Source: Nitrospirota bacterium | Lineage (GTDB): Bacteria; Nitrospirota; UBA9217 | Length of the DNA stretch: 64,000 bases | Direction of reading: 5' to 3' | NCBI GenBank assembly: GCA_963740085.1 | Contig: CAVUCU010000001.1 | Location: 1,024,001 to 1,088,000 of the forward strand | In this document: positions 30,002-35,839 of the stretch, piece by piece | How the letters are laid out: the number at the start of each line of letters is the position of its first letter | How positions within the stretch are numbered: the first letter of the stretch is position 1 | Program-made: the position numbers and the translations under genes | Notes under the pieces: generated by a model | Seen by the model: only the letters and a program-made list of their open reading frames with translations | What the model was told of the DNA's origin: nothing | Database searches by the model: none

Positions 30002-31468
30002 ATGAAGTGCGCATTCATCATACCGGCATGGACGCCGGAGAATATCTTTTCCTCAAAGACGGCGAGCTCGCAGATTAACTACTGGCAGCCGGTCGGCACC
30101 CTCCTGGTGGCTGCTGTCCTCCGCCGGGCAGGGCATGAAGTCACTTTTTTGAACGGCGCTTTCATGACCCATGAAGAGATATGCAGGCATGTTGAGATTT
30201 TCAGTCCGGAATTTATCGGTATCTATTCCACGACCTTTGGATGGGTAAAAGCGAAACAGACGGCAGAGGACCTGAAAAGAACGTATGCTCGAAACGCTTT
30301 CCTCTGTGCAGGAGGCCCCTATCCTATTGCAGTGCAGGAACAGTGCCTCCGGGATGCCGGCACCTGCCTCGATGCAATAGTCACCGGCGAAGGGGAATTC
30401 ACCACCCTCGAAATAGTGGAACGGCTGCAAGCCGGCGCAGGCCTTGAAGGGGTTCTTGGCGCCGCATATTGGGAGGACGGAAAGATCATCAAAAACCTGC
30501 CGCGCCCGTTCATCACGGACCTGGATTCCCTCCCGATTCCCGCGAGAGACCTGTTGGGCGATGCAAATCGGTATATCCCTCCTCCCGGTACCTACCGGAA
30601 AAAACCGGTCGCCGTAATAATAACTTCGAGAGGATGCAACAGGCGGTGCATTTATTGCTTTCAGATGGACAAAGAGCGGAAGAGCGGTATCCGCTACCGC
30701 AGCGTCCTGAACGTGCTGGATGAGATAGAACTCTGCATCAGGCAGGGGTATAAGGAGATCAAATTCCTGGACGATACCTTTGCCGCTGATTACAACAGGG
30801 CCATGCAGATAGCACGGGCCATAAGGGAACGAGGGCTCAACTTCACGTGGTTTGCCTCGGCCTGTGTCAACCAGGTGGACAAGCCCTTGCTCAAGGCCTT
30901 CAAGGACGCAGGATGCTGGGCCATTCTTTTCGGCGCGGAGAGCGGGGTCCAGAAAAATCTCAACACCATACGCAAAGGGACGACCCTTGCGCAGATAACA
31001 AGGGCGGTAAGGGATGCACAGGAGGTCGGGCTCCAGGTCAGTACTCCGTTCATGTTCGGCATACCCGGTGAGACCTTTGAAGAGGGTCTTCAGACCATTC
31101 AGTTCGCCGTTGAGCTGGACCCTGACATGGCGAACTTTCACGCGATCACGCCATTTCCGGGCACCGAACTCTACGACAATCTGGATCTCTATGGGACCAT
31201 TTCCGACGATCTCACGGACTTCACGTACCAGGGTGCGGCGTTCATCCCTTTTACCATGACACGCGAGCAGATCTTGCAGCTGCGACAGATCGCGTTTAAA
31301 CGGTTCTACTCCAGGCCTTCATTTATATTCAAAAAACTCCTCCAGGTCAGAAACTGGCATGATTGCCTGGCAGCCGCCAAGAGCGCAAAAAGCTTATTCT
31401 GGCTGTGGAGAAAAAACAATCTCTTTCTGGAAAAGGCTGCTCTGAAAAAAGGGCGCGTCCGCTGCTGA
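30002..31468 (+). CDS. Cobalamin-binding radical SAM protein
   Basis: N-terminal B12-binding domain ('GGPYP', 'GEGE'); 'SRGCNRRCIYC'; 'DDTF'; 'GAESG'; 'PFPGT'. Confidence 0.92.
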   Translation: MKCAFIIPAWTPENIFSSKTASSQINYWQPVGTLLVAAVLRRAGHEVTFLNGAFMTHEEICRHVEIFSPEFIGIYSTTFGWVKAKQTAEDLKRTYARNAFLCAGGPYPIAVQEQCLRDAGTCLDAIVTGEGEFTTLEIVERLQAGAGLEGVLGAAYWEDGKIIKNLPRPFITDLDSLPIPARDLLGDANRYIPPPGTYRKKPVAVIITSRGCNRRCIYCFQMDKERKSGIRYRSVLNVLDEIELCIRQGYKEIKFLDDTFAADYNRAMQIARAIRERGLNFTWFASACVNQVDKPLLKAFKDAGCWAILFGAESGVQKNLNTIRKGTTLAQITRAVRDAQEVGLQVSTPFMFGIPGETFEEGLQTIQFAVELDPDMANFHAITPFPGTELYDNLDLYGTISDDLTDFTYQGAAFIPFTMTREQILQLRQIAFKRFYSRPSFIFKKLLQVRNWHDCLAAAKSAKSLFWLWRKNNLFLEKAALKKGRVRC

Positions 31469-31732
31469 AGGGTCAATGCCTGCTCTTCGCCCCAACGCAT
31501 CGTCTTTCCCCAACGGTGCGGCTCTCCGGGGGATGCGAGTCGTATGGCTTCCGGGGGAGAGGGCCCTGCGTGATGATCAGGTTCATGCCAACCACCTCCG
31601 GAGCATCGCCGGTCTCGACGAACGGGCGCCTGTCATGCTGCCTCAAAGACCTCACCGCTGTTTAACAGGCATCTCTATTTATAACCAGACATCATTGCTA
31701 TCTGCAAGTTTATGCAAAATTATACAATTAGG

Positions 31733-31761
31733 TTGACAAATACGCAATGTAGTTCTAAGCT
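31733..31761 (+). promoter_or_regulatory. sigma70-type promoter of rhodanese-porin operon
   Basis: TTGACA-17nt-TAAGCT in an AT-rich intergenic region. Confidence 0.6.
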
Positions 31762-31949
31762 CATATTAATGATTTAATGAAACCATCGTGTAATCGTAAG
31801 CAGCGAAGCACCTCAATTACTTACTGCATTATATTATTTTACGCGTACCATGGAGATACTGAATCCTTAGTCTTATGAACAGGAGGTGAAGGGGTCGATT
31901 GGGGTGAGTTCTTTTTGTCCAGGCACATTTAATGAAAAGGAGGCCGCGA

Positions 31950-33623
31950 ATGGATTTTCCAAACAAGCATCGGAAACGTTTCTCATGGCAACTCGTGGTA
32001 TTAGCATTGTGTCTCTTGCTGGTTCCCATCGTCATAAACGGCTGCAGCTCCAGCAGTTATGACACCCCGGTAACCGCTCAGACATCTGCGACATTAATCT
32101 CTCCGGAAACGCTCAAGACATGGACAGACAGCGGGATCGTGAACAGCACGGGTTTCGACCGGGTCGTGATCCTCGACGTCACCTCCTTGGCGACCTACAC
32201 CGCAGGCCACATCCCGGGCGCGCAGTTCGTGAACAGCAATGACATCTATCAGGTCCGCCAGGAAGGCCCCGCCACCGATGTCAACATGGTCATTGACGGC
32301 GCGCACATGGACGCCCTGGTCCAGAAATACGGGATCGACAAGGATACCACCGTCGTGTTCACCAGCGGAGCAGCGTCTCCCGGTGCAGGTTCCGTGCTCA
32401 GCGCCACGCGGGGCTATTGGACATTCCGGTACTGGGGATTCCCGAAGGAAAAGCTCAAGCTGCTTGACGGTATCAATTTTGCCTGGAATGCAGCCTACGG
32501 CCTGGCCACGGAGATCCCTCCCGCACCGACGCCTTCCACCTACAGCGTGAAGAACAATGCGCAGTTGCGCACGGACCTCAGGGCATCCCTGAGCGATATG
32601 ATCAACGTGGCTGAGGGCAAGGTGGCGAATGCCGTACCGGTTGACATGAGAAGCGGACCGACGGACGGATCGTATGTGGGCAAGCGCGGCTCGACCACCG
32701 GCGTCTTCAATCCGGGAAGCGATTATGTTGCTTTCGAAGGCCGCTTGAAGGGCGGCAAGGCCCTGCTGTATACGGACATGCTCGATCCTGCAAACAATTA
32801 TCGTTTCAAGTCGGCCGACGTCCTTGCCGCCATGTTCATGGCCATCGGGGTCGACAGCACGAAATATGCCCATGTTTACTGAAGGACCGGAGTGATCGCC
32901 AGTTCGGCGTTCTTTGTTCTTGATGCAATCCTTGGTTGGCCGGTCGCAGACTATGACGGTTCATGGAGCCAGTGGGGGCAGATGGCTGCTGCAAATAATG
33001 ACAACGGCGGAATGTTGACCGCAGATTCTCCGTGGAGGACGGACGTCCCCTCCCGCAGCGAGCTCTTCGTTTACAACTACGATACAACGGCAGGCCCGGT
33101 GTTCTATACGTCGGTTTCCACGACGGTAACCGGCCTGAACGACATGACCGCGGGAGGAGCCTTCAGCGGAACAGCGAGCAGGTATTTCAGGGTTCAGATC
33201 GACGGCTCAGGCACGCCTGATACGTTCAAGTGGTGGCTCTCGAGCAGTGCTACCAATACAGTGTGGAACGCTCAAAACGTTCCCGTCTCGGCCGGAACAT
33301 TCACTCTCGGTGAGGGCATGACCGTCTCCTTTGCCACAACGACGGGCCATACCGTTAGCGACCGGTGGGATTTCATCACCAAGAGGGCGGTGGAGAGGCT
33401 TGCGCTTGACGGCAGTATCTGTTCAAGCAGTACGAGCGTGGCCGGCGTGACGACCTATAGTCCCGCAGGATGCACTCCCCTGCTGCCCAATTCGTATGCT
33501 CCGTCGGGGAATGAGATCGAAGAGGAAGATGCCACCTATTTCGGGGTCGGCGGCAGCGGCGGCAGTAGCGGAGGCGGCGGTGGCCCCATAGCGCCGGGAT
33601 ACGCACCGGGATTGTTAAAATGA
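31950..33623 (+). CDS. Selenocysteine-containing tandem-rhodanese lipoprotein (ExtH-like), 557 aa with Sec at residue 311
   Basis: AGGAGG SD; lipobox INGC; 'GHIPGA'; ORFs 31932-32882 and 32892-33623 are in one frame joined by TGA-AGG-ACC-GGA (HVY-U-RTG); 'YDGSWSQW' rhodanese C-terminal signature lies after the UGA. Confidence 0.88.
32883..32920 (+). promoter_or_regulatory. Putative bacterial SECIS element
   Basis: Upper stem CGCC/GGCG with loop AGUUC starting 18 nt after UGA; lower stem AGGA-C-CGGAG / CUUUG-UUCU using GU pairs (folded by eye). Confidence 0.7.
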
Positions 33624-33886
33624 AGTCGACTGTCACCAGCGTCATTGTGACAGCATGCATGCTCGCAGCGGGTGTACCGGTGGGAACCGTTCTTGCGGGA
33701 TCAAATGGCGAAGCGGTGCATCCGCAGCACAATACGACGACCGAGAGCCCTTTTGAAGGAGACCATGAAGGCAAAGGAGCCGAAGAAGGACTGTCTTCGA
33801 AGGAAACCGACACTCGGAAAAACATCATGTCTCCGCAGAAGAAACCTCGTCTGAAATATCGTGACGAGTCAAAGTGCTCGTGTTAG
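33620..33886 (+). CDS. Small exported protein with C-terminal CxC (…KPRLKYRDESKCSC)
   Basis: Signal peptide ending VLA; disordered acidic middle; sits between rhodanese and porin genes. Confidence 0.65.
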   Translation: MKSTVTSVIVTACMLAAGVPVGTVLAGSNGEAVHPQHNTTTESPFEGDHEGKGAEEGLSSKETDTRKNIMSPQKKPRLKYRDESKCSC

Positions 33887-33942
33887 TATGAGGTATGGCA
33901 ATAAAGTCATGCAACGTATCGGCGCATATTAAGGAGGCTTTC

Positions 33943-35202
33943 ATGAGAAAATCAGGAATTACATTATCCGCGTTGCCAGCGGGGGCATGTCTCGCGGTAC
34001 TGCTATTGATCGGCGTACCCGCTCTCGCCCAGCAAACAGAACCCGCGGTTCAGACAACTCCTGCGAACCAGCCGGATACTGCAAAAGATGCAGGAACGCA
34101 GCAAATAGTGGACGCGCTGTCTTCGATCAGGTTGAACTATGCGTTTCAACTTTACGGACAGTGGAGGGACACGGGCTCCGGGCCGAAGGGAACGGACAAT
34201 ACAAGCGACATCTACTTTAAGAGAGACCGGCTCATGATGTCGGGACAGTTGGATGATGTCTACAGCTTTTATTCCGCTGTTCAATTCCAGGGGGACGAGA
34301 GGATCTTTCCCACCGATGTAACCACGACACCGTCGAAAAACTTTGACATCATTGACACGTACCTGAGCGCCGACTACACGGATGCGTTCCGGCTTCGTGC
34401 AGGACTGACCAAGGACCCGATGATACGGGAGCAGAACGAGAGCTGCTTCGAGCCTCTCAGCGTTGACCGGTCCTATTTTGATTACACGAACCTGCCGCGC
34501 TTGAATCGCGATTTCGGCCTCGTTGTGTGGGGAAATGTCGCCGACGCGCTATTCCAATACAGGGTAGCGGCAATGAAGGGCAATGACGACAGCAACGACC
34601 CAAAGAGCTCTCTGCGGTACACGGCACGGGTCCATGTCTCGCTCCTGGACCCCGAGTATTCGATCAGCTACAAGGGAACCTATCTCGGCCAGAAAAAGGT
34701 CCTGACCATCGGCGCAGGCTACCAGCTGGAGCCGGATGCTGTGTATGGAAATGTCGCCGGAAAGGATGGCGCAAAGGATTATAAGGCGTACACATATGAC
34801 ATTTTTTTCGAATATCCGACACCTGCCGGAACGTTCACAGCTTCCGGTGCATATCTTAAATTGGATTTTCAGGGTGCATATCAAGGTGCAGATCCTGACC
34901 CGCGGAGTATCGGCCTGAATGGAGAGAAAAAAGGCTGGTACACTAAAGTCGGGTATCTTCTGCCTGTCAAGATCGGAACGGGCGCACTCCAGGTCTACGG
35001 CCGCTATGAACAATGGAGATTTGCAGATCTTGCTGCAATTGTAGATCAGGAAATAAAATGGTCAGCTGTCGGTGTCAACTATTTTCTCAAAGGGCAGGAC
35101 CTGAGGCTCACCCTTGAATATTCAATGAACGATTACGAAAAGGAAGACGCTAACATTAAGGACTTTAAGACCGTCTCCGCAATGCTCCAGCTTCGTATTT
35201 GA
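33943..35202 (+). CDS. OprO/OprP-like anion porin (ExtI-like)
   Basis: AAGGAGG SD; signal peptide; 'DIYFKRDRL', 'RAGLTK', 'LSVDRS', 'RD.G.VVWGN', 'GVNY..KG..L.LT'; amphipathic beta strands. Confidence 0.85.
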   Translation: MRKSGITLSALPAGACLAVLLLIGVPALAQQTEPAVQTTPANQPDTAKDAGTQQIVDALSSIRLNYAFQLYGQWRDTGSGPKGTDNTSDIYFKRDRLMMSGQLDDVYSFYSAVQFQGDERIFPTDVTTTPSKNFDIIDTYLSADYTDAFRLRAGLTKDPMIREQNESCFEPLSVDRSYFDYTNLPRLNRDFGLVVWGNVADALFQYRVAAMKGNDDSNDPKSSLRYTARVHVSLLDPEYSISYKGTYLGQKKVLTIGAGYQLEPDAVYGNVAGKDGAKDYKAYTYDIFFEYPTPAGTFTASGAYLKLDFQGAYQGADPDPRSIGLNGEKKGWYTKVGYLLPVKIGTGALQVYGRYEQWRFADLAAIVDQEIKWSAVGVNYFLKGQDLRLTLEYSMNDYEKEDANIKDFKTVSAMLQLRI

Positions 35203-35229
35203 CGCATGAATCCTGCCTGACGACATGAC

Positions 35230-35268
35230 ACTTCAGGGGGCGTGCAAGATGCCTCCTGAAGTTTTTTT
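35230..35268 (+). terminator. Intrinsic terminator after porin
   Basis: ACTTCAGGGGGCGT / ATGCCTCCTGAAGT stem + T7. Confidence 0.88.
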
Positions 35269-35839
35269 ATGGTAAACGAGGCGCGCGGAAGCATGCAGGG
35301 AGATGCGCTGATGCGGCGGGATGAAAAAGCCTTTCAACGTTTACCTTGAAGATATCCCGTTGCGAGAGCAGGATATCGTTTCGGATTGAAGGGGATCTTA
35401 GTCGTGACAGGGCACTCATGGGCGCACTGGCATCGATCGTCGCATATGGCATCAATTGTCGTTCCGGCCTTTTCAGTTCTCAACATCCCTGCCGGGTCAT
35501 CGTTCTGCGTTCTTATATTGCCGAGACCTTCTGTCGACATTTCTCACGGACCCACATAACCACTCTCTTCAAAAAGCTCGATTCAGCCTTCCCGTGCAGC
35601 GGGGTATGATCCGCGTTTATTCGTACGCTGACAGGCAGACCCAGCGGCGCTGCGAGATGTGCGGTTTCACATGTCAGATGCCATGATAAACCGTACTTTT
35701 CCGAGTGCGTTCGGGCAGCTGCAGTGGAGATGGATCTCGTGCCCCGCGCCCGGACAGAGAAGCATACCGCCAATCGCCACAGGGCATTGTCCGAATCTTG
35801 AGGATGAAACGGGACGAGCGGGCGCATGAGTTCATTCCG

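Follow-up and report, generated by a model that had tools for sequence, protein, structure and literature searches.

Does the TGA codon at positions 32880-32882 of a 64,000-nucleotide (nt) stretch of a Nitrospirota genome (contig CAVUCU010000001.1, positions 1,024,001 to 1,088,000; hereafter the window) end a gene, or is it read as selenocysteine (Sec) inside a longer one? The codon lies in extH, which encodes a predicted lipoprotein of rhodanese-like type, at the position of the catalytic residue, and a first-pass annotation made from the letters of the DNA had proposed a hidden selenoprotein here. The analysis described below makes it very probable that extH is one gene whose UGA is read as selenocysteine, and hence that its product is a real selenoprotein. 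Conservation of the TGA at the same column in relatives and the presence of the Sec machinery in the genome support this assignment.

A tandem-rhodanese frame with a single internal TGA

31950-33623 (including the TGA stop), forward strand: extH, one gene, encoding a probable Sec-containing tandem-rhodanese lipoprotein of 557 amino acids (aa)
32880-32882, forward strand: UGA probably read as Sec (U311), on the evidence of the TGA column in relatives and the Sec machinery of the genome
32091-32504, forward strand: N-terminal rhodanese domain, approximately aa 48-185 (best Pfam PF00581 stretch 71-181, alignment with 1uar, secondary structure of the model)
32547-32987, forward strand: predicted C-terminal catalytic rhodanese domain, approximately aa 200-346, with the loop U311-R-T-G-V-I (second Pfam stretch, alignment with 1uar and 3p3a, model)

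From the ATG at 31950 to its own TGA stop at 33621-33623, extH forms a single frame whose sole internal TGA stands in the context ..AHVY-[TGA]-RTGVIASSAFF.., the recoded residue being position 311, and the sequence YDGSWSQW follows downstream of U311 at aa 335-342. The first-pass annotation had made these claims (two open reading frames (ORFs) that are one frame broken only by this TGA, YDGSWSQW beyond the codon, and a 557-aa read-through product carrying U311), and inspection and translation of the DNA bore them out. A mechanical ORF list splits the gene into 31932-32882 (316 aa) and 32892-33623 (243 aa, with a GTG start). The start at 31950 is supported by the orthologues, in which the equivalent Met is the start.

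The read-through product matched the NCBI model NF040901, 'selenite/tellurite reduction operon rhodanese-like protein ExtH', with 313.6 bits (equivalog cut-off 200; 306-307 bits in the genome search), and the match, covering residues 13-380, spans the TGA. Pfam detected two rhodanese stretches in the same product. An AlphaFold2 model based on 38 homologues, with a mean predicted local distance difference test (pLDDT) score of 82.8 and a predicted template modelling (pTM) score of 0.76, retrieved such tandem rhodaneses as 1e0c, 1uar, 3aax and 1rhd/bovine rhodanese in a Foldseek search at target-normalised template modelling (TM) scores of 0.76-0.84. Solved rhodaneses align over residues 72-346, across U311, and phmmer comparison with 1uar and 3p3a placed residue 311 on the catalytic Cys of the VYCR motif, in agreement with the catalytic position that the first-pass annotation had assigned to the UGA. 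In the model, residue 311 lies between strand 306-310 and helix 314-327; such a strand-to-helix position is the usual place of the rhodanese catalytic loop. Judged from these alignments and the model, the extH product is a tandem rhodanese whose second domain carries the catalytic residue in its loop, whereas the N-terminal rhodanese domain contains no Cys and, to go by its sequence, is presumably non-catalytic. The protein had earlier been described as 'similar to Geobacter ExtH'; the kinship holds, but the wording proved too weak, since the protein passes the ExtH equivalog model and its gene adjoins extI, the porin gene of the same system.

The catalytic column in relatives

A sample of 401 genomes of the phylum was searched with the ExtH model at E ≤1e-40, which gave 30 matches in 26 genomes. 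Twelve of these ExtH-type genes, found in 11 genomes of several families, contain exactly one TGA each, in every case at the catalytic column; 16 have TGC or TGT there, and the remaining two, sub-threshold copies from one genome, have Gly and Asp. The pairing of Cys and UGA at this column, for which the first-pass annotation had suggested aligning homologues, was therefore seen in the phylum sample itself. One genome of the window's family (G013) carries three ExtH-type paralogues (L027, L062 and L064), two with TGA and one with Cys.

It is barely credible that the TGA is an assembly or sequencing error for TGC or TGT. We have no point to offer in its favour; the codon is spanned by contigs of three DNA runs, for which no difference is listed there (all three belong to a single study, and the source sample may be among them), and eleven further genes in ten other genomes carry TGA at the same column.

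If the TGA were instead a true stop, extH would encode a 310-aa lipoprotein with a non-catalytic domain, and the downstream 243-aa frame would be decaying or separately started. Public gene calls do read the codon in this way, 73 of the 120 best database hits being cut at it, the GTG at 32892 opens a downstream ORF, and the energy of the hairpin that follows the codon (see below) is unremarkable. However, all 12 genes mentioned above retain the TGA at one and the same column, and the part downstream of it completes the rhodanese fold and, in the 12 Sec-type orthologues, keeps invariant residues, among them D336, S338, G343, D365, N521 and D527. Furthermore, the GTG at 32892 lies within a nucleotide-invariant block, the preceding GGAG abuts it with no spacer, and termination would deprive an otherwise well-conserved enzyme of its active site. 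We consider a true stop very unlikely, and proceed with extH as one gene read through its UGA.

The database hits come from a collection of 5.8 billion protein clusters, of which the best 120 hits were inspected. The 73 cut proteins, which include the window's own ORF, are at most 340 aa long, and all end in ..[V/A/T]-Y just before the TGA codon; the other 47 are longer and all have Cys at the catalytic column. No full-length Sec ExtH was present among these 120 best hits, although such proteins would be expected to outscore the stumps. One 311-aa stump is named ExtH by NCBI, and many stumps are named SseA by JGI. The forecast that standard annotation would split the gene thus came true for the N-terminal part, which ends at the TGA codon. 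Within this ExtH clade the Sec form seems to be the most frequent one, and we conclude that public databases systematically mis-annotate Sec-ExtH as a 310-aa stump, with the consequence that metabolic reconstructions of Nitrospirota carry an enzyme without its active site.

A FastTree phylogeny of the part before the codon comprised 78 rows labelled Sec, 72 of them from truncation alone, and 37 labelled Cys, with ten proteins of more than 700 aa left out and with L058 and L062 forming long branches. It implies at least three changes between the Sec and Cys states, two of which are forced by well-supported branches. A metagenome scan of 80 loci contributed five ExtH-type loci (L076-L080), the rest being generic rhodaneses, and added little new hairpin variation. 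A scan of genome contigs yielded just 10 loci, most of which were in the set already.

Sequence constraint and a candidate SECIS element downstream of the UGA

32892-32912, forward strand: putative core of the selenocysteine insertion sequence (SECIS), the block GTG ATC GCC AGT TCG GCG TTC, lying 13-33 nt downstream of the UGA and unchanged across nine Sec orthologues
32880-32923, forward strand: predicted extended stem-loop including the UGA, from the minimum-free-energy fold

The block contains a hairpin at 32897-32909 (+18 to +30) made of CGCC (32897-32900), the loop AGUUC (32901-32905) and GGCG (32906-32909), exactly as the first-pass annotation had read it, with the loop starting 18 nt after the UGA. 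What gives this region its weight is the comparison of nine Sec-type orthologues whose proteins are 53-85% identical to that of the window. Codons +4 to +10 are identical at every base in all nine, and the most conserved 12-codon stretch of the whole gene begins at the UGA. With Met and Trp excluded, the codon itself is invariant at seven of the 11 columns with an invariant amino acid in codons +1 to +12, against four of 116 elsewhere in the gene; as the nine orthologues are kin, the Fisher p of 1e-6 overstates the significance, while the localisation of the constraint is still plain. The invariant block recurs in further loci. Cys-type genes that encode C-R-T-G-V-I-A-S use TCT and not AGT for the Ser, after which they diverge (A-S-L-P or A-S-A-L against A-S-S-A).

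In the E. coli fdhF gene the SECIS is a stem-loop directly after the UGA, with G23 and U24 in its apical loop. Numbered with the U of UGA as 1, the extH loop reads A22-G23-U24-U25-C26, and we take its G23 and U24 to be in the register of the fdhF element. Unlike the E. coli element, the extH hairpin has an upper stem of 4 base pairs (bp), its binding by SelB is a prediction, and the other Sec genes of the genome and of the family differ in the loop.

In other Sec clades, hairpins of different sequence occupy this position. That of L079 and L080 has a 13-pair stem with the loop GGUCA at nt 24-28, a G.U pair in one being replaced by A-U in the other, and that of L062 has a 9-pair stem with the loop GUU at nt 24-26. 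Over the first 48 nt, the mean folding energy is -15.2 kcal/mol in the 12 Sec genes and -11.7 kcal/mol in 16 Cys genes. A scan of 31300-35400 against Rfam at E up to 1 gave no match, Rfam being assumed to hold no fitting model of a bacterial SECIS.

Sec machinery and other candidate selenoprotein genes

The first-pass annotation had named selA, selB, selC and selD as the genes to look for, and all four are present above the curated cut-offs. The tRNA-Sec with anticodon TCA is located at C3:198420-198514, selA (607.8 bits) and selB (376.5 bits) are neighbours on that contig, and selD scored 351.1 bits and has an in-frame TGA of its own. The last-named gene (C1:750805-751725 of genome G000) is itself a selenoprotein gene, with the context ..SSCAG-U-AAKF.., and is followed by a hairpin of 8 pairs with a CCU loop, 11-29 nt after its UGA.

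Searching the genome for multihaem frames that contain an internal TGA yielded three candidates. One of them, at C1:787688-789004 (L065:7688-9004), 267 kb from extH, is the gene of ExtKL, also called MccSep; it matches NF040886 with 591.8 bits (cut-off 250), is of the pentahaem cytochrome type and has an in-frame TGA in the context ..HAIPDG-U-PTPN... It stands alone beside a diguanylate cyclase gene, outside any ext cluster; in the phylum sample, 124 of the 401 genomes have a match to its model, in most cases one containing a single TGA. Two more multihaem frames, at C1:1148685 on the forward and C7:47136 on the reverse strand (0-based starts), have five and seven CxxCH motifs, respectively, and stay open across an internal TGA; they may be further Sec-cytochromes or chance read-through.

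The UGA of extH could in principle be read through by a near-cognate Trp or Cys tRNA or under a variant genetic code, which would predict the same open frame as insertion of Sec and has nothing specific to recommend it. In this genome, however, TGA is an ordinary stop, ending 457 of the 1051 open frames of at least 400 codons and thus being the commonest stop of long frames; it ends extH itself, and it ends homologues right after the conserved ..GC terminus. The full Sec machinery, a column that in active homologues alternates only with Cys, and the sequence constraint just 3' of the codon likewise speak against such decoding, which we regard as highly improbable. Insertion of selenocysteine remains the reading that we follow.

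Several observations weigh against this reading or against the functional setting proposed for it below. All support for read-through comes from computation and sequence comparison, and one RNA run (X15) yielded nothing that maps to the stretch; apart from the window's own ORF, the truncated database proteins (72) are known as protein only, their TGA stop being an assumption. The hairpin stem has only 4 bp, and the segment of 61 nt that begins with the UGA has a folding energy of -15.1 kcal/mol compared with -15.24 ± 2.82 kcal/mol for shuffled sequences (z = 0.05), 91 of 200 shuffles folding as well. Folding energy alone is therefore no evidence, the significance of the hairpin comes from the comparison with relatives, and the lower part of the extended stem-loop is a prediction only. 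Of the earlier claim of a SECIS-like hairpin, the frozen synonymous sites in nine orthologues speak for the element and the energy does not. No compensatory changes were found within the nine close orthologues, in which the pairs are invariant. Two divergent Sec forms match the usual pattern badly: the CAGG loop of L058 comes just 11 nt after the UGA, and L054 lacks a clear single hairpin. The CCU loop of selD means that G-U in the loop is no rule in this organism. Finally, a tight co-occurrence of ExtKL with ExtH was sought and not found: ExtKL occurs in 15 of the 26 ExtH-bearing genomes and in 109 of the remaining 375 (13 of 16 and 33 of 48, respectively, when only the window's family is counted), which together with the distance of 267 kb points to a loose functional link.

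Predicted export signal, inserted domain and C-terminal tail of ExtH

31937-31943, forward strand: Shine-Dalgarno-like AAGGAGG, six bases upstream of the ATG at 31950, read from the sequence
31950-32045, forward strand: predicted signal peptide with a lipobox-like ..VING-C32 (Cys32 codon 32043-32045), marking a predicted lipoprotein
33102-33464, forward strand: inserted beta-rich domain, approximately aa 385-505 (about 120 aa), from homologue lengths and model strands
33510-33620, forward strand: conserved block N521-x-x-E524-x-x-D527-x-x-Y530 and Gly-rich tail ..PIAPGY-APGLLK, from invariant alignment columns and comparison of tails

The N-terminus is hydrophobic before C32, a residue that is invariant in the 12 Sec-type orthologues and at least 90% conserved in the 38 homologues. 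The residue at -2 is Asn, which is unusual at this position of a lipobox.

The inserted domain is present in homologues of 530-590 aa and missing from those of approximately 430 aa. It consists of strands only in the model, with pLDDT mostly 67-94 across the block, and as the C-terminal 171 aa of ExtH had no Pfam match at E up to 10, it corresponds to no known family. The junction of the rhodanese pair with the C-terminal block is prone to insertion of domains: L055-L057 have a longer and different insert, and the 430-aa forms have none.

In ExtH homologues the N-x-x-E-x-x-D-x-x-Y block is invariant and is followed by a Gly-rich linker of 10-20 aa. The last residue of most Cys-type ExtH proteins is Cys (..x-G-C), while the window's clade ends in ..PIAPGY; the extension APGLLK is found in the window's ExtH alone, whose tail is poorly predicted (pLDDT below 50 from residue 534). 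The terminal Cys of the ExtH tail is, as we see it, reminiscent of the swinging-arm cysteine of SoxY.

Genes adjoining extH

33620-33886, forward strand: small ORF of 88 aa with a signal peptide, a low-complexity middle and the end ..KKPRLKYRDExxC-S-C; ATG start overlapping the stop of extH (ATGA)
33895-35202, forward strand: extI, outer-membrane porin (NF040900 porin_ExtI, 447.3 bits, cut-off 150; Pfam Porin_O_P)
35230-35272, forward strand: terminator-like hairpin of 14 pairs (35230-35262) with a T run, a consensus match only

The small ORF lies between extH and extI in six of the 30 loci, the window's included, as determined by tblastn, and its C-terminus, ..KKPR(L/I)KYR(D/E)xxC-(S/W)-C, is kept in all six; it had no match in Pfam (E up to 10) or NCBIfam. 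A small ORF with a terminal Cys cluster was present at seven of ten loci whose ExtH ends in ..GY and at none of ten with terminal ..GC. This suggests that the small Cys-ended protein replaces the terminal-cysteine arm of ExtH.

The true start of extI is likely the Met at 33943. ExtI is most likely the partner of ExtH; extI follows extH in 21 of the 30 loci, with Sec and Cys forms alike. The terminator-like hairpin closes the unit formed by extH, the small ORF and extI. No cytochrome gene was found among the 13 neighbouring ORFs scanned. Upstream genes encode a glycosyltransferase-like protein, an FAD oxidoreductase and a B12/radical-SAM protein, and an ABC-2 transporter gene lies downstream, none with an evident link to extH.

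Proposed activity and relation to known systems

We infer selenium incorporation, the substrate, the partner and the membrane side, and with them a role of ExtH in sulfur or selenium transfer at the outer membrane. During translation, SelB carrying Sec-tRNA(Sec) would bind the stem-loop 13-33 nt downstream (32892-32912) while the ribosome stands on the UGA at 32880-32882, and selenocysteine would be put in at residue 311 in place of termination. The product would be exported and lipid-anchored at Cys32, with a selenolate as the nucleophile of the active-site loop in the second domain. Rhodaneses hold sulfane sulfur as a persulfide on their active-site cysteine; Sec311 would take up sulfane sulfur or selenium as an Se-S adduct (selenosulfide) or, with selenium donors, as an Se-Se adduct. 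The donor at the outer membrane might be polysulfide, thiosulfate or a selenite-derived species, and Sec311 would hand the atom on together with the porin ExtI, encoded two genes downstream. At neutral pH a selenium adduct is both formed and given up more easily, a point of general selenium chemistry that is discussed for MccSep in the accessible part of PMC13510729.

The closest known counterpart is ExtH of Geobacter sulfurreducens (GSU2940), a rhodanese-like outer-membrane lipoprotein of the extHIJKLMNOPQS cluster. Like it, the window protein passes the equivalog model, is a tandem rhodanese, has a predicted signal peptide with a lipobox-like Cys and is encoded close to extI. When ExtI is lost in Geobacter, selenite uptake is impaired and ExtH is no longer localised to the outer membrane (Jahan et al., 2019, as cited in the accessible part of PMC8981825). 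Within the Geobacter cluster, only ExtKL is called a selenoprotein in the accessible parts of PMC5877670 and PMC6148476; the name of the NCBI ExtKL model has the '(seleno)' tag and that of the ExtH model does not. Two Desulfuromonadaceae homologues have Cys at the catalytic column, whereas the window's extH has UGA. In contrast to the Geobacter cluster, no cytochrome gene adjoins extH in the window and ExtKL is encoded far away, and the window's ExtH is further set apart by its extra domain of about 120 aa, by a tail in ..GY and not ..GC, and by the small CxC-ended ORF that precedes extI.

Rhodaneses with Sec have been catalogued since 2005. As far as their accessible parts go, a 2026 review (PMC13188914) describes five rhodanese-like forms, two of them with UxxG, PMC9312934 describes a Sec form of 'rhodanese-related sulfurtransferase COG2897 (SseA)' with the motif UxxG, and PMC1976440 counts 'Sulfurtransferase COG2897' among the known Sec families. 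The window's ExtH resembles these in having Sec for the catalytic Cys, and its U-R-T-G fits UxxG, a comparison made with the table descriptions only. The Sec-rhodanese tables in the accessible parts of these three sources mention neither ExtH nor a lipoprotein or porin partner. No statement that ExtH itself is a selenoprotein was found in the open-access literature, supplements not covered. Sec-rhodaneses and ExtH are both known; the gene of the window joins the two without adding a new principle.

Like ExtH, the pentahaem polysulfide reductase MccSep (ExtKL) is an Ext-system protein with UGA-encoded Sec that would act on S-S or Se bonds outside the cytoplasm (accessible part of PMC13510729), so that the organism would have two Ext-system selenoproteins. 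Unlike ExtH, it has an unrelated, multihaem cytochrome fold and is periplasmic; in this genome the two genes are not adjacent, and they co-occur weakly in the phylum. According to the accessible part of PMC13510729, it is not known which path takes polysulfide through the outer membrane, and further sulfur-transfer components are possibly involved. A Sec-rhodanese lipoprotein tied to a dedicated porin would be a concrete candidate for this step. A working analogy is offered by Sud versus the window's ExtH, Sud being single-domain, soluble and Cys-based. The Sud protein of Wolinella succinogenes is periplasmic and rhodanese-type, binds polysulfide sulfur at its active site and feeds the respiratory reductase.

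Going further, it is conceivable, and in our view rather doubtful, that Sec-ExtH and ExtI form an outer-membrane module that captures a chalcogen and passes it inward via a mobile thiol to periplasmic reductases such as MccSep. Sec311 would then remove one atom of sulfur or selenium, with polysulfide, elemental sulfur or a selenite-derived species as its source, and the terminal Cys on the Gly-rich tail of ExtH would be the mobile thiol that carries the atom through or past the porin; where the tail ends in Tyr, as in the window, this part would be played by the small secreted C-x-C-ended protein. Were this true, the module would supply the missing outer-membrane step of sulfur respiration, and with ExtH a selenoprotein would for the first time have been shown to work at the outer membrane of a bacterium. 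Independently of the module, the Sec/Cys pairs within this one orthologous family would provide a clean system for studying what selenium contributes to persulfide-transfer chemistry.

A second clade of Sec tandem rhodaneses was encountered at 11 of the 80 metagenome loci (L088-L090, L092, L097-L100, L102, L106 and L117). Its members, 26-30% identical to the window protein, have TGA at the catalytic column, in the motif ..Y-U-H/Q-S-G-V-R-S.., and may represent the catalogued COG2897 Sec form. A conserved hairpin, GGCUCAC-AGUUUG-GUGAGCC, lies approximately 20 nt downstream of their TGA, and in L089 a G-C pair of its stem is replaced by A-U.

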